Positions 2,477 through 58,533 are shown, numbered from the stretch's first letter. The stretch is 64,000 nucleotides of DNA from Candidatus Enterousia sp. (GCA_045648885.1 JAZROV010000003.1:3179-67178), one strand, 5' to 3'. Made by a program: numbers and translations. The notes: a model not told the origin generated them from the sequence alone.

Positions 2477-2499
2477 TTGATTTTCCCTTAGCTGTTTTT

Positions 2500-17700: not shown

Positions 17701-17823
17701 TGGGGTTTTGAAATGCTGTTTAACCACACCATCAACAATTTTGGCATCTATTTTTATATTCGCAGACACTGGCAATACAAAACAAAAACACGACAAAATA
17801 TAAAACAACAAACGTTTCATCAT
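14740..17823 (-). CDS. Giant (about 1027 aa) Cys-rich secreted/membrane-spanning protein of unknown function
   Basis: Signal peptide MMKRLLFYILSCFCFVLPVSA with RBS GGAGGTG. Cys-rich N-terminal ~440 aa, a central Gly/Ala/Val hydrophobic pair, a Thr-rich linker (SPTTTTTATTAATNTS), a second TM helix (GLVATAAVLGTVAVGGIIGGLVVA) and a ~190 aa C-terminal domain. Confidence 0.8.
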   Translation of the reverse strand: MMKRLLFYILSCFCFVLPVSANIKIDAKIVDGVVKQHFKTPKAQASAIATLNQAAEAGDGTVSASDLWKVCVAGGLDIKKAAYKQKCEEFAYQLIKALGVDYKEVCGKDAGKTGGAEVCEKEMFKDIRVNAAPGAGLSQEYVRVKHNDDTLRCDGKNIRTEKRDDYLKCASANNKAFYEFRFDTLDAFVDDKIKSGIEKGICKIHGSEYGAGAYYCDNTTVAMGTNNSMCYVYGCRTDNEKLCGEINKTARVFGYSGKYNADAKVCEIDVSSVGKAEDLANDFAENGVDSFYFCTNAIQVTNNLSFNDAIKEYLAFEVGVPEHQIDCVKGFRTYTGKGCRTGWINAKDDIIQCSIGDKKVDFVFDDVNEKNKTRRAGGYEGVVCLAADGTFDGSRCETFTEEQCMNLKAKLAATCTDNCDKEVEWKDDACILPNAKTSAQRDKIARYALEAGIVIGAVALTVVTGGGASGVWVVVAHFGTGAMITGAVVKEAAQAKMTWGIYEPFVKKANQCFASPNDTECAERILREDLQTLMSYGDHFLKEEAHALDGIFAKLIERIPKDSQFWQDFINDEDLWNCTDTGCTLKTKHQTWEYVSQVGDALMLAGGLLHIASAIGTYRNTLAALQNRGVMLKNGMGRSKSVTQLVEPVAIEGSTKEMFPIVSNADLYNAGLTTIAGKGANADVVQKLLNAGVKVGDRITIAQAQRLLGVAATTSLNLAPIFGTAIAVMPGHGGDEGEFYIALVDDEKTSNTNQSGGGSVVPGTISDEITDTDDVTDVVSPTTTTTATTAATNTSIADLFKPDTSGLNASQRFRPQKSKNTGLVATAAVLGTVAVGGIIGGLVVASDKNDNKTKAGDVKIDSELEDLMQRTQGSFGSVGNNPLRLKTLPTVVNSNAPIVLINGYPVVLVLYKSRKIPFYMNGISWAPLLGIGNENNYFNVYPTSEKLQNNTKLTAITNALNAGFNPAIVARYNGQVPGAVAFPTAAATALPIINSEFTNGVVQSSNMSDADRRLYNDNYNKIQEILK

Positions 17824-40275: not shown

Positions 40276-40488
40276 TTAGAATTTAAAGCCTGCAAATTTG
40301 CTTTTGAATTCAGCAGCGCGTTTACCCTTTACGCCTTCGTTATTGCGTTGACCAGTCCACGCAGGATGATTCAAATTATCTGTAGACAACACCAAATCTT
40401 TTTTAACCGAAGAATACATTTTCACGGTTTTTCCATCAGTAGTTGTGACATTTATTTCATGATATTCTGGATGAATTCCTTGTTTCAT
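40276..40488 (-). CDS. rpmE: 50S ribosomal protein L31
   Basis: Starts MKQGIHPEYHEINVTTTDG...; 70 aa; no CxxC zinc motif. Confidence 0.9.
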   Translation of the reverse strand: MKQGIHPEYHEINVTTTDGKTVKMYSSVKKDLVLSTDNLNHPAWTGQRNNEGVKGKRAAEFKSKFAGFKF

Positions 40489-40584: not shown

Positions 40585-41094
40585 TTAATATTGTCCGATG
40601 CAGCCCAAATAAGAATTACCCGTAGATTCCAATATATTTATAAATTGATTCTGATTTTTCCCAGAAAACAGCGCCAACACAGTCCCTGCATCCGTTGCCA
40701 ACATATCTGCAACCGTTGCAATCGAAGAATTCATTTTTTTGAAAAAACCACTGGTTGGATGAATTTCAGCCGCCAATAATTGATTCCGACCATGCAATTT
40801 TGCGTTTTCTTCGGCAACAATGACCATCAATTGACATTCCGGGGATACAATCATTTTTTCAACAATAACACCGCCACCACCCAGCAATTCACCCCACCAA
40901 CCCGTCGATTCGCAAAATACAGGATAATAAACCGTCGCCTGGGGGTTTTTATCAAAAATTTCCACGATATCCAAATTATCCGTTATCACATCAGGCATCA
41001 TACCGGTATCGGCATTTATAACCTTGCGCGACAACTGGTAATCAGTATCGCCATTCGTTTTTTTTGGCCAATAAAGAATCGGAAACTTTCTCAT
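40585..41094 (-). CDS. Hypothetical protein (169 aa)
   Basis: Intact ORF, with CTGATATAAT upstream on the minus strand. Confidence 0.5.
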   Translation of the reverse strand: MRKFPILYWPKKTNGDTDYQLSRKVINADTGMMPDVITDNLDIVEIFDKNPQATVYYPVFCESTGWWGELLGGGGVIVEKMIVSPECQLMVIVAEENAKLHGRNQLLAAEIHPTSGFFKKMNSSIATVADMLATDAGTVLALFSGKNQNQFINILESTGNSYLGCIGQY

Positions 41095-41163: not shown

Positions 41164-42456
41164 TTATTTTTTTATGGCTTCGCCCCATTTTTTAAGGTTT
41201 TTCCACATTGTATCTAAGTCTTTTTTAGCAGTCTGATAGTATTTATCAGAGATTTTTATCTTGAATAACATATCTGTCAATTGCGGAATCATCGTCATAA
41301 ACATCGCAATAAATATCCCCATCAAAATCGTGGTTATAATGCTGTTATTCTGCAACAGCAAGCCATCCAGGAATATTTTCGAATCGTTTTGCGCAATCGA
41401 TTGAGCAATAACATTTGCACCCGACCAATCTCCGAATGCTGCATTTAAAAACATTATTGAAAAAGTCAAAAATATAACCGTCAACGCGATTCCTACGACT
41501 GCTTTGATTACATCATCTATCATTTTGCGAATCGTTTGACCACCCTGGGGGAATATTTTGAATTCATCTTCGTCAAACATCCACGCCATCAACATCAAAG
41601 GCAACATTATCAAATCCATAGATAATTTCACAAATATTTCCAAAAAATACAGTGGTATCGGCAACAACGCATAAAAATACAACACCAATATCAATATTCC
41701 ACCCAACAACAATGGTATATTCGGAAATATCGGCACATTGAATAAAATTTTATGTTGATACTCTGCATTAAACGCCATATTCATCATTGTCCAACCGACC
41801 GTCATGCCCAGACCAGTTATTTGATGCACATTTGCAATCTGGCACGCCAATTGATGCCGCAATTTTGGAGAAAACGCACCGTACGCCGCCGCCCCACCAG
41901 ACACAGAAACAGGATCAGCAATCGCCGTAGCAACCATACATTCTGCAAAATTATCATTGTTTGAAACCATATAATCAAACGAAGTCCCCAATGTCAGCGC
42001 AGGTTCAATAAACACGCCCGTTATCAATCGTGGCAGTGGCATCAACAACAACCCCGCCAACACCGCCAATTTCACAACGTATGTGTTGAAATTGCCAATC
42101 AGTTTTGACCCAGATTCCATTTTTCCATTTATCTGATTTGAAAACAAACGCCACGCAACCAATACCGCCAACAGCGTCGCAGACATCGGTATTACTACAA
42201 AACCCAAACCACGATATACCCCCGGCAACAAATTAGACATCGCAATCATAACATCTGAAAATATTTGGCATGTCCAACACGAAGAAAAAAAATCAAACGC
42301 ATCCGCCATATTTACCGGTGCCAAACTGCGCCAAATTGAAACACCCAATATTCCGACACCCGCTGCAATACCACCGATTGCCAACGGCGCCAGCGCCCAT
42401 GCACCCCCCGGTACCAATGCCACCAACACCAACCAAATTTTTTTTAGCGTTTTCAT
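41164..42456 (-). CDS. Polytopic membrane protein, VirB6/TrbL-like paralogue a (divergent from b-e)
   Basis: Signal/TM start MKTLKKIWLVLVALVPGGAWA (ATG 42456). N-terminal CWTCQIFSDV motif, many TM helices, and a central LPLMLMAWMF segment resembling the VirB6 P....F core. Confidence 0.55.
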   Translation of the reverse strand: MKTLKKIWLVLVALVPGGAWALAPLAIGGIAAGVGILGVSIWRSLAPVNMADAFDFFSSCWTCQIFSDVMIAMSNLLPGVYRGLGFVVIPMSATLLAVLVAWRLFSNQINGKMESGSKLIGNFNTYVVKLAVLAGLLLMPLPRLITGVFIEPALTLGTSFDYMVSNNDNFAECMVATAIADPVSVSGGAAAYGAFSPKLRHQLACQIANVHQITGLGMTVGWTMMNMAFNAEYQHKILFNVPIFPNIPLLLGGILILVLYFYALLPIPLYFLEIFVKLSMDLIMLPLMLMAWMFDEDEFKIFPQGGQTIRKMIDDVIKAVVGIALTVIFLTFSIMFLNAAFGDWSGANVIAQSIAQNDSKIFLDGLLLQNNSIITTILMGIFIAMFMTMIPQLTDMLFKIKISDKYYQTAKKDLDTMWKNLKKWGEAIKK

Positions 42457-42525
42457 AATTTTAATTATACCACAAATTATTTTAAATGTGATATAATTCA
42501 ATAGATAAATAATATAAAAGAGAGA

Positions 42526-43836
42526 ATGTTCATTAAAAACACGCGAATTTCACGGTTTTTTAGATATATCCCAAAAATCTTTGGGATTGTGTGTGTTGCT
42601 TTTTTGTTTGGGGCAACACCTGCACGGGCTGATATTCTGGACGCATATAATCTGGCACCGTTTGTTCCATTGGTTTTGGAAAGCATGATGAACATCGCAA
42701 CATCGCTTTATAAATTTTTTGTTGGTAATGGAACAGGCCTGATTTACATTTTGATTTACGTGTTCTTGGGATTTTATATCAGTTTATATCTGGCAAAAAT
42801 GTTTTTACCAAAAGATTGGCTGTCGTTTTTTGGTTTTTCAAATGGTGGCGAAATATGGTCCGGGGCATCGGGTTGGTCAATTGCAGAAAATGTTGCGAAA
42901 CCATGTGTCCGTGTTATTTTTGCGTGTATAATATTGTTGCAAATAAAACCTGTATATGTGACAAAATGGTTGGTAGATCCATTTTTAGAGTTCGGTTCAA
43001 TCTACACAGAACAGATTTTAAAAACAATCAATCGTTCTTCGATATCCGCATCTGATGCACCGGTTTGCCCTGTATCAATTCAAGAATCGGGGTGGATATC
43101 AAAGCGTAGTTGTGATTTTTTGGTTAAACCTGTTTATATAATTTCCAAAGAAAACAATCGCGTTATAAAATATGGTCTGAATTTTTTAAAAACCGGTCTG
43201 GCAGGTTTGATGACTTTGATTCCACATGGCGGAGAAAATATTTTAAACATTATTTCGGGTTTAACTTTGTTGACTGCGTTTATATCTGCGAATTTATTTA
43301 TGGCACTGCTGATTATCCAGGCGATATTTGATTTTTGTTTATCATTGATACTGTATCCGTTTAATGTGTTGATGTGGGTCGGAAAAAAATCAGACAAATG
43401 GTTGGATTTTTTACCTGTGTTCAATCAAATCATTGATGCATTAAAGAAATTGATTATCACTATGATTGCATGCGCGTTTATTTTGTGTATAAATCTGGCG
43501 ATTGTTCGTGCACTGTTTAATTGGACTTCGTCAGTTTTTGTTGTGGCAACAAGTGGCGTCGCATCATCAAATGTGCCGTCAATTACAAATACAGCCATGA
43601 ATTTTGGTCAACATTCTATTTTATGGATATCGTCAATTTTGACATTCTTTTTGATGCAAAATATTTTCAAAATGACACGCGAGAGATTAGATTTATACAC
43701 CAACAGAAAACCACACGACCTGGACCTTTACAACAATGTGTCTGGGGATATAAAAACCGTGTGGGGCAAAGTGAAATCAACACCAAAGACGATAGAAACT
43801 ATCTGGCATGGTGGCAAAAAACTGGCAGGCAAATAA
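42526..43836 (+). CDS. Polytopic membrane protein, VirB6/TrbL-like paralogue b
   Basis: Promoter TGTGATATAAT at 42487..42497. Signal-like N-terminus, multiple TM helices, central LILYPFNVLMWVGKKSDKW. Confidence 0.55.
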   Translation: MFIKNTRISRFFRYIPKIFGIVCVAFLFGATPARADILDAYNLAPFVPLVLESMMNIATSLYKFFVGNGTGLIYILIYVFLGFYISLYLAKMFLPKDWLSFFGFSNGGEIWSGASGWSIAENVAKPCVRVIFACIILLQIKPVYVTKWLVDPFLEFGSIYTEQILKTINRSSISASDAPVCPVSIQESGWISKRSCDFLVKPVYIISKENNRVIKYGLNFLKTGLAGLMTLIPHGGENILNIISGLTLLTAFISANLFMALLIIQAIFDFCLSLILYPFNVLMWVGKKSDKWLDFLPVFNQIIDALKKLIITMIACAFILCINLAIVRALFNWTSSVFVVATSGVASSNVPSITNTAMNFGQHSILWISSILTFFLMQNIFKMTRERLDLYTNRKPHDLDLYNNVSGDIKTVWGKVKSTPKTIETIWHGGKKLAGK

Positions 43837-43840
43837 ACAT

Positions 43841-45028
43841 ATGGAACAAATTGGTAATTTCTTTATAGATACTACTATGAAATGTTGGGCATGTCCCATC
43901 TTTGACAATTTGTTTGTGATTATTTCTGATGCTGCGGGCAAAATGTACAAACAATTGACTGTGTTTGGGGTTATCATATTCTGCATTTTATTTTCTTTCT
44001 TTGTAATAAACGCAGTATGGGAAAATATCAAAAGCAAAGAACCTGATAATTTTTTCAAAAAATCAATAAAGCCTGTTGTAATAAAAGCGTTGATTGCATT
44101 GTCTTTGTTGGGTATGGGGCTTCAAGTGCCGCGGCTTATTTCTAAAATTACATTCGAACCTGTTGCTGCGGTTACATTGGAATTTTCAAAAGTGATGATT
44201 CCGACCGATTATCCGATAACCAAAGATTATCAAAAAATAGAATTAAAAAATGATGGTTTTTTTACACCAAAATTACGTGACACAATTCTTGATTTGATAC
44301 AAACCAGCATCGCAAATTTCCAAGTCTATGTAAAAATTGGCTTAAACATTATGGACAGTGCTTTTTCGCTTAAAAGCCTGATTTATATTGGTTCATTGGT
44401 GAAACATATTATAGTGTTTTTCATAGGTGCACTTTTGACATATAATTTTGTTCGATTGTTTATAAAATATTCATTTTGTTTTATGGATATCATTATTGCG
44501 ATGGCAATGTTCGCGTTCTTTTTCCCATTGTCGATAATATTTTTCATATTCAAAGGTGCAGATAATTTACCCGGATGGATGAAAAGTTTTGGCGGCGATT
44601 TAGGTTCAGGTCAAATCAAATCATTGATAAATGCGATTGTATCTGTGGCGGCTGCGATATTGGGATATACAATTATTATGATGATTATCCGTGGATATTT
44701 AAATTCAAATGGGGTTGATATAAATGCTTTCCATGCGAACATAGAAACTTTGTTTGATTTTGATTTAGAAAATTCGAATGCAATGCAAATAACATTCGCA
44801 GGCGCAATCGTTTTGGTTTATGTTATTCGATATATCGCAGACGAAATTCCAAAAATAACCAATAAAATTTTGGAAACTTTCAATTTATCAATGAACGATT
44901 CTGCATCCAAAGAGATGGGCGAAAATATGTTAAAATTGACAACTGTGGTTGCAAAAGAAGCAAAAGAAATTGCATCTGCGATTATAAATCCAGAGGCAGC
45001 GTCTAAGAAAGAAGAAAAGAAAAAATGA
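43841..45028 (+). CDS. Polytopic membrane protein, VirB6/TrbL-like paralogue c
   Basis: ATG 43841 lies a few nt after the stop of b. N-terminal MKCWACPIFDNLF motif. Central FFFPLSIIFFIFKGADNLPGW. Confidence 0.55.
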   Translation: MEQIGNFFIDTTMKCWACPIFDNLFVIISDAAGKMYKQLTVFGVIIFCILFSFFVINAVWENIKSKEPDNFFKKSIKPVVIKALIALSLLGMGLQVPRLISKITFEPVAAVTLEFSKVMIPTDYPITKDYQKIELKNDGFFTPKLRDTILDLIQTSIANFQVYVKIGLNIMDSAFSLKSLIYIGSLVKHIIVFFIGALLTYNFVRLFIKYSFCFMDIIIAMAMFAFFFPLSIIFFIFKGADNLPGWMKSFGGDLGSGQIKSLINAIVSVAAAILGYTIIMMIIRGYLNSNGVDINAFHANIETLFDFDLENSNAMQITFAGAIVLVYVIRYIADEIPKITNKILETFNLSMNDSASKEMGENMLKLTTVVAKEAKEIASAIINPEAASKKEEKKK

Positions 45029-46455
45029 TAAAAAAGTGGTTGATAGAAAAAGGTTTTAAAATCGTTATCGGCGCAATTTTGTTGGGCGTTGGTATATGGT
45101 ATTTATCTTCGTCTATTGGTGGTGCTTCTTTGTCATACACATCGATGGATACATTTATGCATCAAATTGATAATGGCACCGATGCATATGGTGTCCCGGG
45201 CTGTTTCTTGTGCAAATATATTGGCGATTTGTTTGCGACATTGGGCCGCGCAACAGAAATGTTCTGGAATGGCATAGTTCATAATTTATGGATATTGATG
45301 GCCATTGGTTTTGGTATTTTCTTAATATTTCATACTTTGAAATTTTTGCGCGAACAGGCCACATCCAAAGATATCAAAGATTTAACCGACGCGGAACCCA
45401 AATTAGATTTCAAAAAATGGTTTGATCAAGTCTGGAAAACAGGCGTTCGTGTTTTAATGGTCGGTGCGCTAATTGGTGCGTTGAATTGGTCTGGGACCGG
45501 GGCATTGCGAACAATGACAAATATAACTGTGACGCCGGTTATGTATATGGGGTCTGCGCTTTCTATGGGCGCGACCGGCGTAATCAGCGATGCACAATGC
45601 GAAATAACAACTACTGCGCAAAACCCTGATGACATTTTAAATCCAGTATTAAAACCGTTTATGTGTGTTATTGGTAATTTGAATACGGTTATGTTGGCAG
45701 GCGCAGGTGGTGGTTTTGCACTGATGAATTACGCATGGATGGGCATGGGCGGTGGTGTCTTTACCTGGGTTGCAGGGTTGGCATTGGTTATTATGTTTTT
45801 AATTATCGGTTTTGATTTATTGTTCCAGGTTTTAACTGTGATTTTCAAATTGATATTCATAATAATATTTATGCCGATTTTATTAGCTGCTGTCGCATTT
45901 GAACAGGTCTGGGCATTGGCCAAAGGTTTAATGAATTCTGCAATAAATATGCTGGTAAATTCTGCGGTCAGTATATTGAGAATCAGTTTGAAAATTTGTA
46001 TTGTTTATGCTGTTGTTTATTTTTCTGCATCACAATATGGTTTCACAACTATTTTACCACCATTGTTGGGAAATGTCAGGAACGAAACATTCACTGAAAA
46101 ATCACAAATGGTATTCGATGCATTTTCAACCTGTGAAAAGACAGCATTGGTTGATGGCGAAATAAACAAAGAGAAATTTAAAATATGTTTTGAACAACAA
46201 CGCAGTTCCATTGTCGCACAATATCCAGATGCTTTTGATTTCATGTCAGACGGTCTGGGATTTTTATTATTTATGATTGGTGTGGCGTTCCTTTATTTCT
46301 GGATAATATCACCAAAGATAGATGGATTGTTGGGCAAAGATGGCAAAGAAACATTTGATTATGGTCAATGGGTAAAAGATTTTGGCAAAGCGTCTGTGAA
46401 TGCGCCGCATACTGTGTACACCAAAGTCAAAGAAATTATGGACAAAGGAAAATAA
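45025..46455 (+). CDS. Polytopic membrane protein, VirB6/TrbL-like paralogue d
   Basis: ATGA start/stop overlap with c. GCFLCKYIGDLF motif. Central IIIFMPILLAAVAFEQVWALAKG. Confidence 0.55.
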   Translation: MIKKWLIEKGFKIVIGAILLGVGIWYLSSSIGGASLSYTSMDTFMHQIDNGTDAYGVPGCFLCKYIGDLFATLGRATEMFWNGIVHNLWILMAIGFGIFLIFHTLKFLREQATSKDIKDLTDAEPKLDFKKWFDQVWKTGVRVLMVGALIGALNWSGTGALRTMTNITVTPVMYMGSALSMGATGVISDAQCEITTTAQNPDDILNPVLKPFMCVIGNLNTVMLAGAGGGFALMNYAWMGMGGGVFTWVAGLALVIMFLIIGFDLLFQVLTVIFKLIFIIIFMPILLAAVAFEQVWALAKGLMNSAINMLVNSAVSILRISLKICIVYAVVYFSASQYGFTTILPPLLGNVRNETFTEKSQMVFDAFSTCEKTALVDGEINKEKFKICFEQQRSSIVAQYPDAFDFMSDGLGFLLFMIGVAFLYFWIISPKIDGLLGKDGKETFDYGQWVKDFGKASVNAPHTVYTKVKEIMDKGK

Positions 46456-46458
46456 AAA

Positions 46459-47739
46459 ATGCAATTAAAAACATTTTTTAAACGTTTGTTTATCGCCATT
46501 GTATGTGTGGTTGGTGTATATGGTGCATCATATGCGGCTGGAAACATGCCTTTGGGCGAAGTTGGCGAATATGGCGCATGGATAAATGAAGACAATATGT
46601 CAGAATACAAACAAAATATTTCTGATGATTTTACAAAATTCCAACAAAATTTTGAAACGGATGTCAAAGCGCCAAACTTTGTCCCAATCGAAGTAAAATT
46701 AGGTTTAGCATTTATGAAATCTTTGTATGCGATTGATGCAGTGCTGCAAATCTCTTTGGTTCGATTCACAATTATATTTTTGTTTATTATGTATGCTTTC
46801 TGGATAGCATTAGAAGCATATAAAATGATTCGTGATTCTAATGATTATAAATCGGCTTTTTATGACATATTTAAGAAAGGAATAACTATTGCAGTATGGG
46901 TTATGATTTTAAATTATGGGCCTGCAAAAATATTTACCATGATTATCGGACCAATTATGTCAATCGGAACATATCTATCGAATTTCATTTTGGATACAAT
47001 CGCATCAAATTATGATGTAAATATTCCAGACACATGCGCGACTATCCACCAATATGTTGACGCTAATACAAATGGAAAATTGTTAATAGACGCCGATGCT
47101 GCTGCAAATATTATGTGTTTGCCCGGACGTATATCAACCTATTTTTATTACGCAACATCAACTGGTTTTAAATGGATGATTTACGGATTCACCCAGGGTA
47201 TCACTGCGATAGTTATTGGTGCGGTCTGTGTGTTTGTTTTTGTAAAATGTGTTTTCAAATATGCGTTTATGACTTTGGGTGTGGTTGCAGATTTATTTTT
47301 AACATTATTGATGTTGCCGTTCACTGCGATTGCAGAATCTATGCCATCCACCAAAGAATCAAATTATATCGGTCAAATATTCAGTGGCTTATTAAAAATA
47401 TTCAGCACAAAAAAATTATCAGATGTAATTTCTGTTTTCGTAAATGCGACAATATATTTCGTCAGTTTATCTATTATCATCGCAATTTGTGCATTGTTGT
47501 TGTCTAATGCAATCGGTTTGAACGCGGATAATTCTTATTCTGTGGCATCTGGAATGACATCTTTGTTAACAGGGTGTTTGATATTATATCTGGCGAACAA
47601 ATCTGATGAATTAGCCAAAAAAATCGGCGGTAAAATCGATAATTCATTTGGAAAAACATTACAAAGCGATGCAAAAAATTTGGTCAAACAAACAAAAGAT
47701 TTGGGTGGTAAATTGGTTAAAGCATGGGTAAAAAAATAA
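46459..47739 (+). CDS. Polytopic membrane protein, VirB6/TrbL-like paralogue e
   Basis: Starts 3 nt after the stop of d. Signal peptide. NFVPIEVKLGLAFMKSLY resembles b (APFVPLVLESMMNIATSLY). Central LLMLPFTAIAES. Confidence 0.55.
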   Translation: MQLKTFFKRLFIAIVCVVGVYGASYAAGNMPLGEVGEYGAWINEDNMSEYKQNISDDFTKFQQNFETDVKAPNFVPIEVKLGLAFMKSLYAIDAVLQISLVRFTIIFLFIMYAFWIALEAYKMIRDSNDYKSAFYDIFKKGITIAVWVMILNYGPAKIFTMIIGPIMSIGTYLSNFILDTIASNYDVNIPDTCATIHQYVDANTNGKLLIDADAAANIMCLPGRISTYFYYATSTGFKWMIYGFTQGITAIVIGAVCVFVFVKCVFKYAFMTLGVVADLFLTLLMLPFTAIAESMPSTKESNYIGQIFSGLLKIFSTKKLSDVISVFVNATIYFVSLSIIIAICALLLSNAIGLNADNSYSVASGMTSLLTGCLILYLANKSDELAKKIGGKIDNSFGKTLQSDAKNLVKQTKDLGGKLVKAWVKK

Positions 47740-49821
47740 TTAAACAAATTTTACAAAATCACGCGCTACATTTTTGATACCTGTCTTTTTAAATGCAACT
47801 GTCAATATATTTTCATTTTGCGCAATCACAACACCCGTCCCCATTTCACAATGCGACACCATTTTACCCACAACAGATTGTATTTTTTCACGCTTTGGCT
47901 TACATGTTTCTGGTGTTGCGCGGTTTTGTGTGTATTGATGCTTTTGTTCACCCTGGTTACAGATAAATTTTTCATCAATTTCTCCGATAAAACGCGACTG
48001 CGTTTGATATAAACGTTGTCCGAACAGCGACCGCACCATTGCATTAGTTATAATTAAACGAACGCGCGCACGTGTGATTGCAACATATGCCAAACGACGT
48101 TCTTCTTCTAAATCGCCTTCTTTGGTGGTTTTATCGTTCGGGAATATACCCTCTTCCCAACCTGGTAAAAACACAGTATTAAATTCCAAACCTTTGGCGG
48201 CATGAATCGTCATAATTGAAACAACGTTTTTATCTTCGTTTTCGTTGTCATTATCATCTGTCATCATTAATGCTGCATGTTCCAAAAATTCCGGCAGTGT
48301 GTCATATTTAGCAACAACTACGTTTATCAATTCACGAATATGTTCTATGCGTTCGTTTGCGTCAGTATCCTTTGATTGGCGCCACATATTTATATAGCCT
48401 GATTTTTCCAGCAATTGTTGCGTGGCATCTTTCGGAGACATATTTTGCCAATCAAAATCAAATGCGTTTAAAAATTCATCTGCGTTTATACGTTGAACAC
48501 TTGAAAGTTTTGCGTTTTTTAACCCGTCCATTAAACAGGTTCCACTTTCACGCAATTTTGCAATCGCCGCTGGTCCAATTTTACGCGATGGTTTTGAAAT
48601 AATTCTTTCGAATGATATATTATCAAATGGATATACCAATAAACGTATATATGCAATTGCATCACGAATTTCTGCACGGTCGTAAAATTTAGTCGCACCA
48701 ATCAATTTATATGGAATTTGTTTTGATGTAAATTCTTCTTCGAATGTGCGCGAAAGAGAACCCGCCCGAATCAATATCGCAAAATCAGAATAATTATTAT
48801 GTGCATTTCGAATAATTGTATCGGCGACAAAGCGCGCTTCGTCCCAATCAGACGGCACAGTGAACACATATATCAATTCACCCATATTTACATTTGGGGC
48901 GACTTTTAATTCTTTGCCCAAACGCCCCATATTATTTTTTATCAATGAATTAGCCGCCCCCAATATATTACCTGTGCTGCGATAATTAGTTTCCAAACGA
49001 ATTATTTTTGCCCCAGGATACGTTTTTTCAAATTCCAAAATATTTCTTATTTCTGCACCGCGCCAAGAATAAATCGATTGATCATCATCCCCCACACAAC
49101 AAATATTTGGTTTTTCAATGCCACGCGTCAACATTTTTAACAACATCATTTGGGATGCGTTTGTATCCTGGAATTCATCAACCAATATATATTTAAATTG
49201 ACGTTGATATTTACTTAAAATTTCAGGGTTTGATTCAAATAAACGTAAAACATCCAATATAATATCGCCAAAATCAATCGCACCCGCATCCAATAACGCT
49301 GAATTATATGCCATCAAAATTTTTCGAGCGATATCCGACATAGGTATTTTGGTAAAATCTGTGATTCCTTTGTCTTTAAAGCCCGAAATTCGTTCCACCC
49401 AATCAGACGGGTTATATTCTTTGACATCCAAACCTAAATCAGCAATAGTGCGTTTTAATATAGCCTTTTGATCATCTTCGCCATAAATCAAAAAATCACG
49501 ACGCAAACCGGCAGCCATATAATTAGACCGCAAAATACGCAAACAAATTGAATGAAATGTCCCCATCCATAAATCACCACATAAATGTGCGATTTGTTGG
49601 TATTGTGCCACACGAAAACGCATTTCGTTGGCCGCTTTGTTAGTAAAAGTTAACGCTAATATTTGCCACGGCAAAGCAGCGTTTGTATATAAAATATGCG
49701 CAATTCGCGATGTTAAAACCCGGGTCTTTCCTGTTCCTGCCCCGGACAACACCAACAAAGGCCCGTCCAGTGTCGTGACAGCCAGTTTTTGTTCATCATT
49801 CAAATCTGACATATAATCCAT
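47740..49821 (-). CDS. uvrD: UvrD/Rep/PcrA-family ATP-dependent DNA helicase
   Basis: Walker A LVLSGAGTGKT, ILVDEFQDTN, and helicase motifs V-VI (TIHAAKGLEF, RLAYVAITRAR). Confidence 0.9.
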   Translation of the reverse strand: MDYMSDLNDEQKLAVTTLDGPLLVLSGAGTGKTRVLTSRIAHILYTNAALPWQILALTFTNKAANEMRFRVAQYQQIAHLCGDLWMGTFHSICLRILRSNYMAAGLRRDFLIYGEDDQKAILKRTIADLGLDVKEYNPSDWVERISGFKDKGITDFTKIPMSDIARKILMAYNSALLDAGAIDFGDIILDVLRLFESNPEILSKYQRQFKYILVDEFQDTNASQMMLLKMLTRGIEKPNICCVGDDDQSIYSWRGAEIRNILEFEKTYPGAKIIRLETNYRSTGNILGAANSLIKNNMGRLGKELKVAPNVNMGELIYVFTVPSDWDEARFVADTIIRNAHNNYSDFAILIRAGSLSRTFEEEFTSKQIPYKLIGATKFYDRAEIRDAIAYIRLLVYPFDNISFERIISKPSRKIGPAAIAKLRESGTCLMDGLKNAKLSSVQRINADEFLNAFDFDWQNMSPKDATQQLLEKSGYINMWRQSKDTDANERIEHIRELINVVVAKYDTLPEFLEHAALMMTDDNDNENEDKNVVSIMTIHAAKGLEFNTVFLPGWEEGIFPNDKTTKEGDLEEERRLAYVAITRARVRLIITNAMVRSLFGQRLYQTQSRFIGEIDEKFICNQGEQKHQYTQNRATPETCKPKREKIQSVVGKMVSHCEMGTGVVIAQNENILTVAFKKTGIKNVARDFVKFV

Positions 49822-50586: not shown

Positions 50587-52872
50587 TTACGACCCGGAAC
50601 AGGTATTATTTTCAATTTTCTGAACCGTCACACTGTGTTGTGGTTCCAATACACCACCGGTTGCAGTCCCAGTTTCACACGATACGCATGCGCCCAGATT
50701 ATTACGATATTCATTTATTGAACACGATGCCAAACACGCACCACCCCAAACAGTATAACCATCATCACATTTACAACGTGCATTTGCATATCCACCGACG
50801 GTTCTGTTTGCCGATACAGTTTGCGCAGACGCAACAAATGTCGAATTAGTCGGACACAGCAACGATTGATAGAACAAATCAGAAACAGCCTGAATTAAAT
50901 ACGCCTTTTGCAAAGTATCTATAGTTTTCAATTCCGCCGCTGATGGTTGATTTCCAGATGTATTATCAGATGCGATTCTTTCCATTTCGGCTGCAACATT
51001 TGCATCATACGCAAACACAGCGTATCCACACGTCAATGCAACATTGTAACATGCACCCGTCATGACGCTGTAAATGCTGTTTGCGTTCGCAGTTGTGCTT
51101 AACGAAGAAATCTGGGTCATCTGTTGATTATAGCAATCAGAAATATCAGACATACATGTTGATGCATAATCAGATATTACACGCGATTGGGCCGCTTTGA
51201 TATTCACCATCGCACGTTGAATGTAATTCACAACAATATCGTTATACGGTTTGTACGACGCGGTTTTACCGGTTGCAGAATACGTATAATCTTGGCATTT
51301 ATCCAAAACAGCACGACACAAACCACCATCTTTGGCAGATTGACCAGTTCCAATTTTATTCATCAAATAATTCACTATGCACGCACCATCGTGATTGCTG
51401 CACGTTGTATCCGCACTGGCCGCTTTGATAAAATCAGCAGTTATATTCGCATTGTTATAATTTTCTGTGATACCTGCAATGGCAGCGATATTGCGACCCA
51501 AAACCACATTACCATTTTCATCAATATAATTTTTAGTTGGATCCAAACATTTAACATAATCTTCACCACAAACCATATCATCCAACATGCAATTTTCGAG
51601 TGCTCCTACACACCCACGCGCATCATATTGATTTTTATTTTGCAGAACGGTTAAACGACCTTTTTGCAACATCAAATTCGCACTGCGCACATTAGACAAT
51701 AATGTCTGATTTAATTTTTCCAATCCCTGTTCATATGCAGCGCAATCTTTTACGATAGCCAAATCATAATTACCAGTAATTTGAGATTCGGTTGCACCCG
51801 CATCTTTGCATTGATTCAAAACAACTTTGCAACGTTTTGTTGCCTCTTTATACAAATCTTTGCCACGTTTTGAAGATATATCATTCGAAGAAGATGTAAA
51901 TAAATCCAGCCCAAACAAATCAGATGCGTCGGACGAAAAATCAAATTCCATATCCAACAAAGAATTTCCATTCGCAGAATATGAATATGCAGATGACGAT
52001 GTCGGATCTTTTATCATTTCTGCAATATCGTCCAACATAGAGCGTGTTTGCGTATTATCTTTGGTTTTAGATAATTCTAATTCCGCCTCAGTCGCGTTCA
52101 TAATCGCACGAATTTCATCAGCCGACAACCCCAAATATCTGATATTTTGCGCAACTTCGTTTAATTCAACATTCGCGTCTTCGACCGCCGCCTGGACCCG
52201 CGCATATTTCGCCAGATTTTCAGAACACGAACAACGCTTTTGATTTGCATCAACGACCGCACAGAATTGATCCATGCATTCATTGTATTGCTCTTGACAT
52301 GTATTATTCAAATCAGCCGTTTTTTCCAAAACATCTTTGGCCGCAGAAATAGATTCCGCAGTCGGCGTCACACTTTTCCGCGTATTTCCCAACAACGATG
52401 CACGCCCCTGGATATTGCGAATTTCTTGGTTTATGTTAGACCCAGTCTGGGTATCAGTGCCAGTAATTTTTGCACGTCCGCCCACTTCCGCAGTTGTGGC
52501 ACGCAAAACAACGCCTGCGCGACGAACCGACGGATCTGAATTGATACTGGCCGCATCAGTGCGCGCATTACGACCAACCGTATTCACTGCCGTATCCAAA
52601 GAATTGCGCGTCACAGTATTTCTTTGCGCACCACGCGAAACGACATTTACATCTGGTTTTTGATTATTTGTTCGGGCAATTGCACGTGCAACATTACGCG
52701 AAATTGCCGCTTTGTCATCTGATTTTTTTCCTGTTTCACCGTCATAAACATTTGAATTTGTTCCGACACTTGTGCGCCGCGCGCCACGATTTGTGGACGT
52801 GTCAGACACCGCCGCAAAACCATTCGCAGCAAACAAAACAGTCATGAAAAAACATAAAACTATATTTTTCAT
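50587..52872 (-). CDS. Cys-rich secreted protein, paralogue 1 (761 aa)
   Basis: Signal peptide MKNIVLCFFMTVLFAANGFA. Arg/Ser/Thr/Asn-rich low-complexity N-terminal region. Motif CQEQYNECMDQFCAVVDANQKRCSC. Cys pairs throughout, with an EGF/furin-like Cys-rich C-terminus. Confidence 0.8.
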   Translation of the reverse strand: MKNIVLCFFMTVLFAANGFAAVSDTSTNRGARRTSVGTNSNVYDGETGKKSDDKAAISRNVARAIARTNNQKPDVNVVSRGAQRNTVTRNSLDTAVNTVGRNARTDAASINSDPSVRRAGVVLRATTAEVGGRAKITGTDTQTGSNINQEIRNIQGRASLLGNTRKSVTPTAESISAAKDVLEKTADLNNTCQEQYNECMDQFCAVVDANQKRCSCSENLAKYARVQAAVEDANVELNEVAQNIRYLGLSADEIRAIMNATEAELELSKTKDNTQTRSMLDDIAEMIKDPTSSSAYSYSANGNSLLDMEFDFSSDASDLFGLDLFTSSSNDISSKRGKDLYKEATKRCKVVLNQCKDAGATESQITGNYDLAIVKDCAAYEQGLEKLNQTLLSNVRSANLMLQKGRLTVLQNKNQYDARGCVGALENCMLDDMVCGEDYVKCLDPTKNYIDENGNVVLGRNIAAIAGITENYNNANITADFIKAASADTTCSNHDGACIVNYLMNKIGTGQSAKDGGLCRAVLDKCQDYTYSATGKTASYKPYNDIVVNYIQRAMVNIKAAQSRVISDYASTCMSDISDCYNQQMTQISSLSTTANANSIYSVMTGACYNVALTCGYAVFAYDANVAAEMERIASDNTSGNQPSAAELKTIDTLQKAYLIQAVSDLFYQSLLCPTNSTFVASAQTVSANRTVGGYANARCKCDDGYTVWGGACLASCSINEYRNNLGACVSCETGTATGGVLEPQHSVTVQKIENNTCSGS

Positions 52873-53771: not shown

Positions 53772-56024
53772 TTATTTATCCCGATAGGAACGATTTCTGT
53801 CACGTTCAACCGCGGTTTTGGCAGTAGAAATATTCAAAGTCAACCCATTAACACAATCGCGAATTTGAGATTCTTTGACAGAACCTTTGTCACAAGTTTC
53901 TTGTTTTCTAAAATCTGGACTAGTGCATTTGCTAGAAAGCGTTACAGCATTACCCGCATTTCCGTCTTTGTCTGGAATACTTCCAAATATGTCTTCGGCA
54001 GCACCGACCGTCGAAACCAATTGCTGGCAAGCTTTTTTCTTCTGACTTTTTATTGAACCTTGGACAACGCTGAGATTCGAACGCAAACAATTCAACATAG
54101 TGTCTGTATCGCCCGTATAACAATTTGCGGCACCAGACAGATAAATTCCTTCTTCCCGGTCGGCACGTGATGTTGACCAAGATGAACCAGTTGAATCATC
54201 GTCTTTTTTGGCACCAGATGCTTCCAAAGTCGCTTGGAACACTGCTTTTTCCAGATGTGTTTTCAACCGACGCAATGTTGCCGCCAGATATTCATATTGT
54301 TTATACATTTGTTGCGCAACGACAGTCGTTTTCAAACCAACTATTTCTGCGATTTTGTCACGATTTGTTGTTGAATTTGTTGTTTCGCCGATATTATACG
54401 CATGTGTATCGCACATTGCATAAATCGGATTCACGAACGGACAACTTGCGTCTTCGGTCGTGCTGCCCAGTTCATCAACACAAAGTTTTTGACCACCTTT
54501 CGTTGAAATAGATTTGCTTAACCGCGCAGTTTCCAATACAGTCTGGGCTTCAGCATTATAACAAGAATCATACATATGTTTATTGGCATCAGACGGTTTA
54601 ACATTCGGTTCTGTTTGTGTCAACCAAGTACTTAAAAATTCAATATCAACCAAACCTGCGCCATTTTTACGTTTTGCACGACGCCCCAGAAAACCACTAC
54701 GTTCTACCATTTTTGAAGCGCACCCAACGACAACAGAATTTCTGGATCTGTCAACTTCACCACCTTCTTCGACCCAACTGCCATAGATTTCATCATCATT
54801 GGTCAGTTTTTTATTTACAGTGCACATTGTACAATATGATTTTATGCAATTTCTGAAACCTGTTTCATCATTTTGATGGGCAGATTTACAGGCCTGATAA
54901 TTTGAACCATATGCGTCTTTACCATCCACAGTTGGTCCAACAACCGAACGGTCGCAAACCATTGGCACACCGTCATCATAGACTAATTCGCCATTAACCT
55001 TGTACGGACAAAGGAAATTCGCCCATTCTTTGCAGGAATCACTAAGCATCATATAAATCGGTGTAATGTCAACCCCGACCAATGACGCATCGTCCAGCGC
55101 ATCATAAATTTTATCCGCTACATTATCGTATGGGTCGATAAAATCAAGCGCCAATTCGCGGAATTTTTTCACACGTTTTGGGCCACTGCAATTATTTCCA
55201 TGTGAATCACAGCCCGCATATTCAAACGCCGCAGACATAGATTTTTTCACTTCGGCCAACGACACATCGGCATCTTCGATTTCGGTCATTATTTTACCCG
55301 TCGCCTGTTGCCGCAATAAAATTTCTGCAGATATACCATCATCAATTGCATTCGTTTGGGTCGCGGTTAAATCCATTGTTGATACAGGTATTGTATTTAC
55401 AGTGTTCACTGTATTCGCCGCACTGGTCAAATTTTCAATTGCAGCCGCATTTTGTTCGCGCTGTTCTGCCAATGCGTCCTGTAATTGACGTTGAGTCTGG
55501 GCATTTTGTGCAGCCATCTGTTGTTGCATTTGCGCCATTTGTTGCGTCATATTTGATTGCATTTGTGCGATTTGCGCAGCCATTTGTTCAGACTGTGCGT
55601 TTTGTGCCGCCATATTGGCCATAGCCTGTTGTTCGTTCGCCCGCGCCGTAGAATTTGCAACCAATTGAGCCGCCATATACGACACCAATTCATTGCCATA
55701 TTGTTTGCAAGACGCATTTGATTCCACACAGCCCGCCACAATCGCAGTCGCCACATTCGCGTCAACACAACCACCATTCGCGCATTTTGGCGATGCACAG
55801 CGCATAACAATTGCATTACAATTTCCAAAATCCGCCCGCGCATTAGGTTGTGCCAAATCTGAACGACCATTGACCAAAGTGTTCCATTGATTGTTATAAG
55901 TGTTGCTGGGGTTATATGCAGTCAGATTATGTCCGGCATTTGTTGCAACGACAGCATGCGCCCCGAAATTAAGCAAAGGCGCAGAACACAAACACACTGT
56001 CAAAACACGCGATAATTTTTTCAT
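53772..56024 (-). CDS. Cys-rich secreted protein, paralogue 2 (about 750 aa) with a Gln/Ala/Met-rich coiled coil
   Basis: Signal peptide MKKLSRVLTVCLCSAPLLNFGAHA from ATG 56024. The context GAGAGATGAAAAA resembles the paralogue 1 start. Coiled-coil tract AAQNAQSEQMAAQIAQMQSNMTQQMAQMQQQMAAQNAQ. Many Cys pairs. Confidence 0.75.
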   Translation of the reverse strand: MKKLSRVLTVCLCSAPLLNFGAHAVVATNAGHNLTAYNPSNTYNNQWNTLVNGRSDLAQPNARADFGNCNAIVMRCASPKCANGGCVDANVATAIVAGCVESNASCKQYGNELVSYMAAQLVANSTARANEQQAMANMAAQNAQSEQMAAQIAQMQSNMTQQMAQMQQQMAAQNAQTQRQLQDALAEQREQNAAAIENLTSAANTVNTVNTIPVSTMDLTATQTNAIDDGISAEILLRQQATGKIMTEIEDADVSLAEVKKSMSAAFEYAGCDSHGNNCSGPKRVKKFRELALDFIDPYDNVADKIYDALDDASLVGVDITPIYMMLSDSCKEWANFLCPYKVNGELVYDDGVPMVCDRSVVGPTVDGKDAYGSNYQACKSAHQNDETGFRNCIKSYCTMCTVNKKLTNDDEIYGSWVEEGGEVDRSRNSVVVGCASKMVERSGFLGRRAKRKNGAGLVDIEFLSTWLTQTEPNVKPSDANKHMYDSCYNAEAQTVLETARLSKSISTKGGQKLCVDELGSTTEDASCPFVNPIYAMCDTHAYNIGETTNSTTNRDKIAEIVGLKTTVVAQQMYKQYEYLAATLRRLKTHLEKAVFQATLEASGAKKDDDSTGSSWSTSRADREEGIYLSGAANCYTGDTDTMLNCLRSNLSVVQGSIKSQKKKACQQLVSTVGAAEDIFGSIPDKDGNAGNAVTLSSKCTSPDFRKQETCDKGSVKESQIRDCVNGLTLNISTAKTAVERDRNRSYRDK

Positions 56025-56131
56025 CTCTCTTAAAGACAATTTTATCATAAAAAACATTTGGTGTAAAGCAGAACATAGGTTTTATTCACAAAAAAACACC
56101 GCCCAGACGGGCGGCGTTTTGATTCAGATTT

Positions 56132-58312
56132 TTAATCTTCGGTTTTCACGGTCTTTTTCCATCCGCGCAAACATGTCTGATTTGATGTATCACAATAACC
56201 TTCTGATTGTAATGCAGATTGCAAACATCTTTCACGTACCGCCGCAGAATTCAAATTGGTTGTTCCAAATGTCAACGGTTGCGAGATTGCATTAACCTCT
56301 AATTGCGACGCACCTGTGCCGTACAAGATTTCACTTATCGTCACAATATTACGGCATGTGTTTGTTTTATAATCATCTGTGTAATCGCATCTGGTCGAAT
56401 CTTCTTTATCAACGACAGCAACCAACGGCGATTGCAACGGTGAACAAATCATCGTTTCATAGCAATGTGGAACCTGGGAAACCTGGCTGCAATATGCTTT
56501 GATACGTGCAGTTGTCCATTTGTCTTCGTCTTCATAATCTTCATAACAATCCCAGATTTCAGATATACACTGGTTGAAATTATCAATTGCAGTGGTCGCG
56601 TCAGCAAATACAGCATCGTCTTCTTCTTGTTTGAATTCCAGACGTTTTTGTTGTAATGCCTGTTCCGCAGCAATTTTTTGATAATTGATGTTCTGGGCAG
56701 TTTGTTTCAACGCCGCGCCATATGTATCACATGCAGAATTTGCGTCCAACAAATATTTTTGCATAATGCTGCGACGCGCATCCGCAACCGGACCACGAAT
56801 CGTCACATACGGATCGTTCGATGTCGATGTAGTCGTTCTGGTCCCCGTGGTTGTTGTGGTAGTTGTTGAATAACCAAAGCAACTGGCCGCGGACGCAACC
56901 GTCGCGCTGGTTGAGCCACGTTCATTCAAAACAACATCACCCGTTGAAGAATCAACAGAAATATAACTGTTGTAATTAAACGGACAATTTGATGTCGCAG
57001 ATGTTGCGCATTTTGAATGAGTTTTACCATCCGAATCTGTCAGTGTTCCCGGATTTCCGCAACTTTCATAAATTCCGTTAAAGCAAGAATCTAAGACACG
57101 ACCACAAACATTGTTATGGGCATATTCAAACAATTTATATCCCCATTTATTTGCCAAAGAATCCAGCGCAGCCGAATCTTCATCCACAGAATCTGTAACC
57201 CCAGACAACGCATTCACAACACCCGACACAGTTGTATATTGTGCAATCAAATTATTAGAATCATCAGATGTGTATTGTTTTGCCAAATCTTTTGCATCTG
57301 CCCAGGCTTTTAATTGCGCCAAAATATCAGATGACGAACCATCAATCGACGAAACATCAAATCCGAAATTATTGTTGCTTGATGTGCAATAAGACGGTTG
57401 AGAACAACTGGACACTTTGCCACCGTTGCTGCCATAAATATTATGACTTGAACACCATTCAATTGCTTCATCCGAACTGGCGCCATATTGCGCGATTGTT
57501 TCTTTCCATGATACGCAATTCATAACTTTTTCAGCATCGGTCAGCGAAAACGCATAGGATAAATCGTCGCCTTTGCCTTTGGTGGCAATCAAAAGTGACA
57601 ATTGACCCGACAATTTTATCAATTCTTCGTTTGCCGCTTCCAATGCATCTTCGGCCGCCAAGAAATTAGTTGCACGACCCGCACATGAACAGCGACCCTT
57701 GGTATCACTGCGCGCGGTGCAGATTTCGTCCATACAGGTATAATACGAAGACAAACAATTCGAATACGCATCGGCAGAAATCAATCCAGTTGAAGAATCA
57801 ATAATGTCTGAATATCCACCCGAATATAATTTACTGGTTAAATACGCATATGTCGTCGTCCCAGCACGTGTTCCGGCTATTGGTGTATTTGCAACACTTA
57901 AACGAGCCGGTGTCCCGGTTGTACGCGCACGAACGGCACGATTATCAGAACTGCGCGAAGATGCGGTTTGCGCACGTGATGTCACATTACGCGATGCATT
58001 TGTTGTCCGTGACGCAGTATTTGCGCGCGACGCCACAGAACGCGATGCAGTTCCCCGCGAAACCGTTGTTGTTGGACGCCCCCCGGTTGTCCGCGAAACC
58101 GTAGAACGCGACACAGTCCGATTAGATGTAGTCGTGTTTGAACGCGGGCTTTGCCGTCCAGAACGAACAACATTTTGATTATCTGGAACAATCGGATCTG
58201 CGAACACAGACCGCATGGATATAAATGTGGAACAAACAAAAAATGCCGTCGCCAAAAGGAACATAGTCCCCAATGCATTTTTACAAGAATCCATATTCAT
58301 ACGAATTTTCAT
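56132..58312 (-). CDS. Cys-rich secreted protein, paralogue 3 (about 726 aa)
   Basis: ATG 58312 with RBS AGGAGA. Signal peptide within MKIRMNMDSCKNALGTMFLLATAFFVCSTFISMRSVFA. Repeats of (S/T)R type (TVSRSTVSRTTGGRPTTTVSRGTASRSVASR). Motif CLSSYYTCMDEICTARSDTKGRCSC. Confidence 0.8.
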   Translation of the reverse strand: MKIRMNMDSCKNALGTMFLLATAFFVCSTFISMRSVFADPIVPDNQNVVRSGRQSPRSNTTTSNRTVSRSTVSRTTGGRPTTTVSRGTASRSVASRANTASRTTNASRNVTSRAQTASSRSSDNRAVRARTTGTPARLSVANTPIAGTRAGTTTYAYLTSKLYSGGYSDIIDSSTGLISADAYSNCLSSYYTCMDEICTARSDTKGRCSCAGRATNFLAAEDALEAANEELIKLSGQLSLLIATKGKGDDLSYAFSLTDAEKVMNCVSWKETIAQYGASSDEAIEWCSSHNIYGSNGGKVSSCSQPSYCTSSNNNFGFDVSSIDGSSSDILAQLKAWADAKDLAKQYTSDDSNNLIAQYTTVSGVVNALSGVTDSVDEDSAALDSLANKWGYKLFEYAHNNVCGRVLDSCFNGIYESCGNPGTLTDSDGKTHSKCATSATSNCPFNYNSYISVDSSTGDVVLNERGSTSATVASAASCFGYSTTTTTTTGTRTTTSTSNDPYVTIRGPVADARRSIMQKYLLDANSACDTYGAALKQTAQNINYQKIAAEQALQQKRLEFKQEEDDAVFADATTAIDNFNQCISEIWDCYEDYEDEDKWTTARIKAYCSQVSQVPHCYETMICSPLQSPLVAVVDKEDSTRCDYTDDYKTNTCRNIVTISEILYGTGASQLEVNAISQPLTFGTTNLNSAAVRERCLQSALQSEGYCDTSNQTCLRGWKKTVKTED

Positions 58313-58533
58313 GAAAATCTCCTGCCTATTGTTGCACACAAACAACGCCAGATTTCTGACATGATTTGCGAACAATTCCTTCACTTAAAGAAAATTATAA
58401 CATTTTTAGACGAATGTGTAAATAACAAAAATCGTATTTTATATATAAAAACAACTTTATTTTATTAGACATAAAAACAAAAAAATTTGTAGTATTATTT
58501 TAAAGAAACATACTTTTATGAACAAAGGTGGAT

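Follow-up and report, generated by a model that had tools for sequence, protein, structure and literature searches.

Analysis of a 64,000-nucleotide stretch of Candidatus Enterousia sp. DNA (GCA_045648885.1, JAZROV010000003.1:3179-67178; hereafter the window, meaning the whole stretch, with positions counted from its first letter) indicated that the five tandem genes at 41164-47739 are probably highly divergent members of the VirB6/TrbL family and make up the VirB6 islet of a type IV secretion system (T4SS) that is scattered over the chromosome, resembles the Rickettsiales vir homolog (rvh) system and lies outside Rickettsiales. An earlier note, made from the sequence of the window, had left two options for these genes, VirB6/TrbL paralogues of a scattered T4SS or a distinct membrane-protein family; fold matches, a sequence bridge to VirB6 and the presence of partner genes in relatives favour the first. 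The case builds on the paralogy and conservation of the five genes, their VirB6-like fold, their transitive homology to VirB6 and the presence of virB3, virB4 and virD4 in related genomes that also hold them. The five genes, named a to e, are the following (aa, amino acids):

41164-42456, minus strand: paralogue a, 430 aa from ATG 42456; VirB6-like and polytopic, with the N-terminal CWxC subtype; the most conserved of the five.
42526-43836, plus strand: paralogue b, 436 aa; VirB6-like, with the N-terminal (A)PFVP subtype.
43841-45028, plus strand: paralogue c, 395 aa from ATG 43841; CWxC subtype, without the Cys pair in the loop.
45025-46455, plus strand: paralogue d, 476 aa; VirB6-like, CFxC subtype.
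46459-47739, plus strand: paralogue e, 426 aa; VirB6-like, FVP(I)E subtype.

Direct BLASTP comparisons among the five proteins were marginal, with pairwise identities of about 20%. Paralogy was therefore assessed by profile-profile comparison (HHalign) of the five orthologue alignments, and the matches were nearly full-length, with probabilities of 98.3% for a-c, 96.9% for b-e, 96.5% for c-e, 95.6% for a-e, 95.1% for a-d, 93.8% for c-d, 92.2% for d-e and 90.4% for a-b. All five families also matched a bridging profile built from 20 distant relatives (profile A7) at 99.3-99.9% (E=1e-20 to 1e-38), with values of 99.9% for a, c and e, 99.8% for d and 99.3% for b. FtsW and MraY families from the same genomes, used as negative controls, reached at most 1.1% against these profiles, and a compositional artefact behind the HHalign scores was rejected on this ground. 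These sequence comparisons support the view that the five genes are ancient paralogues.

Analyses of the orthologue alignments revealed that both N-terminal subtypes described in the earlier note, CWTCQIF, CWACPIF and CFLCKYI in a, c and d and (A/N)(P/F)FVP(L/I) in b and e, are present and conserved. The CxxC motif is invariant in the orthologues of a (57/57), c (55/55, C26 and C29) and d (54/54, C60 and C63), and the VP motif is kept in all those of b (56/56, P48) and e (54/54). A pair of Cys residues in the large loop is conserved in a, b, d and e (C181/C196 in b) and is lacking in c. Columns common to all five paralogues are L141, P152, G253 and P286 in the numbering of a. Several transmembrane helices and a loop of roughly 90 aa were indicated by hydropathy and by the helices of the AlphaFold2 models. 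All five proteins share a conserved Pro-containing transmembrane helix, behind which a Trp stands in a, b, c and d, not in e.

AlphaFold2 models were built for protein a from a 90-sequence alignment (predicted local distance difference test, pLDDT, 67; predicted template modelling score, pTM, 0.62) and, independently, for protein e from 97 sequences at 35-92% identity (pLDDT 67.3). Foldseek comparison of model a with the PDB placed TrwI/VirB6 chains at the top (8RTD, 8RT9 and 7O3V; E 0.03-0.2, probability 0.96-1.00), with target-normalised template modelling (TM) scores of 0.44-0.48 over about 340 columns, while the other matches were nearly all G-protein-coupled receptors and transporters with TM-scores below 0.2. 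The six best matches of model e were all TrwI/VirB6 (best E=7.7e-3, probability 1.00, target-normalised TM-scores 0.46-0.48), and the identity of the chains as TrwI was confirmed for the structural matches of both models. A fold-level similarity to VirB6, reproduced on two paralogues, is thus probable; it is graded so because the E-values are weak and the superpositions loose.

The sequence evidence is less direct. The check proposed in the earlier note, hmmsearch with PF04610 (TrbL/VirB6), failed for all five proteins, and none of them matched any Pfam or NCBIfam model at E<=1; the profile of the a family (A1) also found nothing among PDB sequences. The failure is a matter of divergence and not of unrelatedness, VirB6 being a very divergent family in its own right: phmmer with A. 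tumefaciens VirB6 misses R388 TrwI, and a profile of that VirB6 reaches TrwI only at E=3e-5. An exhaustive hidden Markov model search of 1.84 billion cluster representatives was carried out with a query (A6) that combined the a family, the e family (alignments A4 and A5) and the window proteins b, c and d. It returned 874 proteins at E<=1e-3, mostly orthologues of a to e, together with about 17 distant matches (<30% identity to any of the five families), several of which measure 540-1018 aa and carry the homologous part C-terminally. PF04610 was the sole Pfam match in three of the ten distant relatives scanned, in each case on the same core of the model, namely P0459 (E=1.2e-5, 25.6 bits; cutoff 25.9), P0478 (E=2.8e-4, 21.2 bits) and P0494 (E=4.5e-3, 17.2 bits). 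Direct Pfam scans covered eleven of the most divergent proteins, the five of the window among them, and none reached the cutoff.

A broad VirB6 reference was assembled from IncW TrwI, three IncN-type proteins, one protein each from a Pseudomonas and a Xylella plasmid and 13 Rhizobiales VirB6; a second contig scan with the VirB6 alignment added further Rhizobiales only, and the breadth came from plasmids with a TrwI fragment as query. The profile of the distant relatives matched this reference at an HHalign probability of 95.3% (E=2.1e-8) over 274 columns (VirB6 12-287 of 346) and the TrwI-type sequences alone at 92.8%, the positive control of TrwI-type against Agrobacterium-type VirB6 giving 98.4% and the merged superfamily against the TrwI-type 76%. 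The bridging alignment is collinear and runs through an N-terminal helix with (I/Y)(F/I)xD, the first transmembrane helices with a conserved Trp, the large loop, the Pro-containing transmembrane helix, the next loop and the C-terminal transmembrane helices. The motif of the Pro-containing helix reads (M/L)LP(L/F)...W/F in the superfamily of the window and (I/L)GPL in VirB6; TrwI was the top PDB sequence for profile A7 on the LPL...W/F motif, at a value that is not significant (E=2.6). Homology of the five proteins to VirB6 is thus supported, transitively by sequence and also structurally.

The remaining evidence comes from the other T4SS genes of the lineage, which were sought by tblastn with pTi VirB1-B11 and VirD4 as queries against the window and all Enterousia loci, about 60 kb being covered per genome. 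Only VirB4, at one locus, and VirD4 were matched by the pTi proteins. A 753-aa VirD4/TraG coupling protein (PF02534, E=2e-50) adjoins the five-gene block in one genome (L027). With this protein as query, the best 80 of 246 loci showed 70-100% identity and all belonged to Enterousia-type metagenome-assembled genomes (MAGs). At least 24 of the assemblies with virD4 loci are also among those with cluster loci, and the cluster and virD4 lie on one contig in DJQW01000001.1 (L021/L196, about 55 kb apart) and JAGBHZ010000011.1 (L034/L210). In the circular MAG OZ007020.1 (958,618 bp) virD4 stands alone among housekeeping genes.

The virB4 gene was found in L197, from MAG SC0338_S5_7, which also holds a copy of the cluster (L055). 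There, an open reading frame (ORF) of 98 aa with two transmembrane segments, whose sole Pfam match is PF05101 VirB3 (21.6 bits; cutoff 23.9), abuts an 805-aa VirB4 (PF03135, 30.4 bits; cutoff 21) that is 24% identical to pTi VirB4 over 799 aa. A single type of virB4 locus was seen. Its layout, virB3-virB4 and then an ORF for a secreted product of about 200 aa, was met again in 22 metagenome loci (69-93% identity), in none of which virD4 or the five-gene cluster lies within 10 kb of virB3-virB4. The T4SS genes of the lineage are spread over at least three islets, since the VirB6 array, virB3-virB4 and virD4 stand at separate loci. Of the partner genes that the earlier note had proposed to look for, virB3, virB4 and virD4 were found, all in relatives, and VirB2, VirB5 and VirB7-B11 were not found in the roughly 60 kb covered per genome. 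That note had also named two findings that together would speak against VirB6 membership; the first, absence of a TrbL/VirB6 profile match, was indeed observed; as to the second, absence of T4SS components elsewhere in the genome, such components were seen in related genomes and not in that of the window.

Two further candidates at the virB4 loci were rejected. A weak VirB11 match in L222 turned out to be a T2SSE ATPase of 542 aa next to a PilO-like gene and so is not VirB11; the ATPase (PF00437) and the PilO-like gene (PF06864), at 67-3702 on the minus strand of this Enterousia-like genome, make up a module of the type IV pilus type, some 6 kb upstream of virB3-virB4. The ORF behind virB4 (L197 4453-5061; L218-L239) occupies the canonical virB5 position, and a VirB5 identity was discarded since Pfam and PDB profile searches revealed no VirB5 similarity and an HExxH motif was found instead. 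Its product is secreted, about 200 aa long, with the HExxH and several Cys residues invariant, and may be a small metalloprotease.

Conservation of the cluster was determined in species-representative genomes, the scan of which yielded 56 loci with protein a at 48-82% identity to that of the window. The same order and orientation of all five genes was found in 53 of these, that is, on every contig long enough. Each gene forms its own orthologous group, and the groups stand at 1:1:1:1:1 wherever the contig covers the whole cluster (53/56); orthologues of b were present in all 56 loci. Identities to the other window proteins were 47-78% for b, 36-70% for c, 46-75% for d and 36-71% for e, so that the five-gene block as a whole spans 36-82%. 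The block e-d-c-b with divergent a, together with a neighbouring ORF of 169 aa, remained intact in five loci where the outer flanks are rearranged (L025, L039, L043, L045 and L049). Conservation of the cluster far exceeds chance. The relatives of protein a are all annotated as hypothetical proteins in gut or rumen MAGs labelled Alphaproteobacteria or Candidatus Enterousia, and none has a Pfam domain.

The 169-aa ORF lies next to a in 56/56 loci, with identities of 53-91%. Its product carries the conserved motifs FPILYWP, YYPVFCESTGWWGELLG, SPECQLMVI and ESTGNSYLGCIG and is without match in Pfam, NCBIfam, the PDB or the pTi Vir proteins. Three loci, L051 and L195 (CAVGNU01) and L203 (OZ246409.1), come from records titled Bacteroides fragilis or uncultured Muribaculaceae bacterium and yet hold an Enterousia-type cluster, virD4 or both, with the usual level of identity; the bins or labels of CAVGNU01 and OZ246409.1 are probably misassigned. 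In one species the cluster has in its vicinity a gene (L042 16980-20054, plus strand) for an autotransporter of 1025 aa whose repeats are of the Chlamydia polymorphic-membrane-protein kind (PF03797, PF02415).

Enterousia belongs to the order Rs-D84 in GTDB, and its genomes, of about 0.75-1.0 Mb, show no accumulation of pseudogenes and lack the tricarboxylic acid cycle, respiration and standard transporters (PMC12306168). NCBI places Candidatus Enterousia in Alphaproteobacteria incertae sedis, and a few MAG records have been titled uncultured Rickettsiales bacterium by their submitters. We found no paper joining Rs-D84 with type IV secretion, and the Enterousia genome paper is silent on secretion (PMC12306168).

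The closest parallel is the rvh system, the comparison with RvhB6 resting on published descriptions rather than on its sequences. The hallmarks listed for rvh include multicopy RvhB6, as the earlier note had held, and the system, in which RvhB4, RvhB8 and RvhB9 are duplicated and a VirB5 analogue is missing, has been called bona fide rickettsial and an order-level signature (PMC11077975). In Rickettsia five virB6 genes stand in tandem, with a divergence of about 80% among themselves; its VirB6/TrbL domains average 413 aa, its VirB3 and VirB4a have 95 and 805 aa, and its vir genes have been described as an 'archipelago of five islets' (PMC2653234). The Enterousia genes resemble RvhB6a-e in being five, tandem, co-conserved and mutually divergent (about 20% identity), in the size of the proteins (395-476 aa against a domain of about 413 aa), in the scattering of T4SS genes over islets of a small alphaproteobacterial chromosome and in the sizes of the partners, VirB3 having 98 aa here and VirB4 805 aa in both. 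They differ in that the array stands apart from virB3-virB4 with one gene divergent, whereas rvh islet A reads virB3-virB4-virB6a-e. The Enterousia proteins are bare VirB6 domains, while RvhB6 proteins have 670-1150 aa with long N- and C-terminal extensions. Unlike in rvh, virD4 is solitary and does not follow virB8-virB11, the proteins fall below the Pfam TrbL threshold, and the host lineage, Rs-D84, is not classified in Rickettsiales.

R388 TrwI (7O3V, 8RT9 and 8RTD) is the best structural match of both models, a and e, and is matched collinearly through the bridging relatives, over the N-terminal helix and the Trp-bearing and Pro-containing transmembrane helices, the Pro-containing helix reading LGPL in TrwI and (M/L)LP(L/F) in the Enterousia proteins. 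Unlike the Enterousia genes, the gene for TrwI is single-copy and lies in a compact plasmid operon between virB5/eex and virB8; its 342-aa product has neither the CxxC motif nor the loop Cys pair, and its identity to the Enterousia proteins is about 12-13%. A. tumefaciens VirB6 (pTiC58), the founding member of PF04610, is likewise a polytopic inner-membrane protein; a large loop follows its second hydrophobic segment, it has a conserved Pro-containing transmembrane helix with a cytoplasmic loop behind it, and its N-terminal PAPF...IFD resembles both APFVP of b and e and C..IF.D of a, c and d. It differs in having 295 aa, in being encoded by a single gene of the virB1-11 operon, and in the essential Trp of its cytoplasmic loop, which is not clearly conserved in paralogues a and e; no direct HHalign signal joins it with any single family of the window. 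In general, VirB6 has been described as polytopic and seated in the inner membrane, with a large loop in the periplasm and a conserved transmembrane-cytoplasmic region that holds the essential Trp (PMC2653234).

A second array, from a further and distant lineage, was found in L217 (4967-15968; Logan SRR28370466, 30% G+C), where five co-directional tandem paralogues of 770, 781, 857, 474 and 650 aa are preceded by a gene for an 86-aa membrane protein and followed by one for an OmpA-like protein. These proteins match profile A6 at E=4e-16 to 2e-36, one of them, P0478, is marginal on PF04610, and the CWxC motif is also common in their distant group. Unlike the Enterousia array, all genes are co-directional and the products, of 474-857 aa, have N-terminal extensions. 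Five-fold VirB6 arrays therefore recur.

The five ORFs at 41164-47739, one divergent and four co-directional, were found just as the earlier note had described them, except that the starts of a and c were moved inward. Two features complete the layout:

42457-42525, between a and b: spacer of 69 nucleotides (nt), AT-rich; a presumed divergent promoter region.
40585-41094, minus strand: hypothetical gene for a soluble protein of 169 aa, directly downstream of gene a.

The full ORF of a spans 41164-42501 on the minus strand and opens at TTG 42501. The start of the gene is most likely ATG 42456, which gives 430 aa, because its orthologues (48-97% identity) nearly all have 429-431 aa and because the longer ORF contains a promoter-like site, a sigma-70-like one for the minus strand at 42492-42464. 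The scan for promoters and terminators gave 37 sites against 34.7 expected, and promoter-like sites overall are not above chance in this AT-rich DNA. The full ORF of c is 43808-45028 on the plus strand, and since many orthologues have 394-397 aa the most likely start is 43841, giving 395 aa and a gap of 4 nt behind b. With these starts the junctions are 4 nt for b/c, an ATGA overlap for c/d in which the start of d lies on the stop of c, and 3 nt for d/e, in agreement with the gaps of 0-5 nt or ATGA overlap noted earlier. At the far end the stop codons of e (plus strand) and uvrD (minus strand) abut at 47737-47742 with no intergenic base, which leaves no space for a terminator between these convergent genes.

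The flanks also proved to be as first described, with the 169-aa gene and then rpmE (40276-40488) on one side and uvrD on the other. Further neighbours in the window are gyrA, a class I aminoacyl-tRNA synthetase gene, murG, ftsW, mraY, genes for a class A penicillin-binding protein and a suhB-like product, a dnaQ-like exonuclease gene and several unannotated ORFs; these are mostly housekeeping genes, and the remark that no other T4SS genes are adjacent holds for the window. Three ORFs of 750-761 aa on the minus strand (50587-52872, 53772-56057 and 56132-58384) have no significant Pfam match; a signal peptide is present in the first, the C-terminal half of which is very rich in Cys. They could be secreted or surface proteins, possibly T4SS substrates or adhesins. 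A 404-aa protein with a C-terminal phage-lysozyme domain (PF00959; 20838-22049, plus strand) could be a peptidoglycan-degrading effector or serve a VirB1-like function. A 576-aa PcfJ-like protein (PF14284; 8266-9993) and a 1033-aa ORF without match (14743-17841), both on the minus strand, were also present.

Several observations weigh against the assignment of the five genes to VirB6 of a scattered T4SS. By the curated gathering threshold of PF04610 all five proteins fall outside the family, and each family alone compared with the VirB6 alignments gave at most 6% by HHalign, with the narrow Rhizobiales as well as with the broad reference, so that the sequence link to VirB6 is a transitive one through distant relatives. 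The Foldseek E-values are weak (0.008-0.2), the root-mean-square deviation is about 10 A and the pLDDT is moderate (67). Paralogue e shows no clear counterpart of the essential Trp of A. tumefaciens VirB6. By tblastn and by annotation of the neighbours, no VirB or VirD4 gene lies within the 64-kb window; the relatives in which alone virB4 and virD4 were seen have a protein a with about 50-59% identity to that of the window, and VirB2, VirB5 and VirB7-B11 were not found in the roughly 60 kb of sequence examined per genome.

This last set of observations leaves room for an unlikely, though not negligible, alternative in which the proteins derive from VirB6 and have been repurposed as a stand-alone inner-membrane channel or scaffold, for example in DNA or nutrient uptake, perhaps with VirB4/VirD4 motors and without an outer-membrane core complex. 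No VirB2, VirB7, VirB8, VirB9, VirB10 or VirB11 was present in the loci examined, the cluster is uncoupled from virB3-virB4, unlike in Rickettsia, and DNA import has been speculated for the multiplied VirB6 of that genus (PMC2653234). The genomes are also reported to lack standard transporters and to encode many unexplained membrane proteins (PMC12306168). However, the other VirB genes were looked for in only the same 60 kb or so per genome, and VirB3, VirB4 and VirD4 are all strongly conserved in a genome of about 0.9 Mb, as expected of a working T4SS.

It is very improbable that the five belong to an unrelated polytopic membrane family, such as a transporter or an envelope-biogenesis factor, with the resemblance to VirB6 arising by convergence or as an artefact of comparing helical proteins. 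The lack of a direct Pfam, NCBIfam or PDB sequence match, Foldseek E-values above 1e-3 and the housekeeping neighbours would all fit such a family. Against this, VirB6 came first for two independent models out of about 350,000 chains, its TM-scores exceeding those of all other matches by a factor of two to three, and the collinear, near-full-length match of 95.3% through the bridging profile compares with at most 1.1% for unrelated membrane families. Moreover, PF04610 is the sole Pfam match in three relatives, and the lineage has virB3, virB4 and virD4, yet no other VirB6 candidate was seen in it. A decaying chromosomal remnant of an integrated conjugative element or plasmid-derived T4SS, which the common mobility of T4SS genes and the PcfJ-like and phage-lysozyme-domain genes of the window might suggest, can be dismissed almost entirely, as the five genes are intact, in fixed order in all 53 fully covered species and in clearly constrained orthologous groups, the G+C content of the cluster is like that of the genome around it, the neighbours examined include no integrase, relaxase or repeat boundary, the published genomes are without pseudogene accumulation (PMC12306168), and a mobile-element origin was rejected because no plasmid encodes a relative and synteny is uniform, with a vertical pattern across the relatives.

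The assignment to VirB6 of a scattered T4SS suggests how the proteins might work. In the solved R388 machine the VirB6 stalk base sits above the VirB4 ATPase. The stalk's base consists of a VirB6 pentamer, which is thought to be a platform for pilin recruitment and substrate passage (PMC12981334). By analogy, and if the partners assemble together in Enterousia, VirD4 and a VirB4 ATPase anchored by VirB3 would supply the energy and hand over substrate on the cytoplasmic side, and the VirB6-like proteins would form a platform or conduit in the inner membrane by which substrate, together with any pilin, would pass toward the periplasm. According to the alignment with VirB6, the loop with the Cys pair and the N-terminal CxxC/VP segment would face the periplasm, a location that would fit disulfide formation.

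That genomes of about 0.9 Mb have strictly kept all five paralogues argues against redundancy among them. They might co-assemble as a hetero-oligomer, possibly with one copy of each in a five-fold ring; Anaplasmataceae have only four VirB6 paralogues (PMC2653234), which speaks against a strict one-of-each pentamer as a general rule, and a heteropentamer would therefore not be universal. A wider proposal, offered tentatively and rather doubtful as it stands, would combine a heteropentameric, pseudo-symmetric T4SS core with one subunit per paralogue, a multi-VirB6, scattered rvh-like architecture that is older or more widespread in reduced-genome Alphaproteobacteria rather than an invention of Rickettsiales, and use of the system in the gut to exploit or kill neighbouring cells.

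If the five genes are VirB6 members of a scattered T4SS, genes that are annotated only as hypothetical proteins in hundreds of gut MAGs gain a function, and the curated TrbL/VirB6 profile overlooks a whole clade of the family. The genes would be the first indication we have found of a T4SS in Candidatus Enterousia and in the order Rs-D84, and such a system would offer a concrete mechanism for the dependence on partners that genomes of about 0.9 Mb imply. The occurrence of an rvh-like pattern in another order, together with the second five-gene array, has a bearing on how the rvh system arose. As VirB6 is pentameric and five paralogues are retained together, the reason for the multiplication of VirB6 in Rickettsiales becomes testable.

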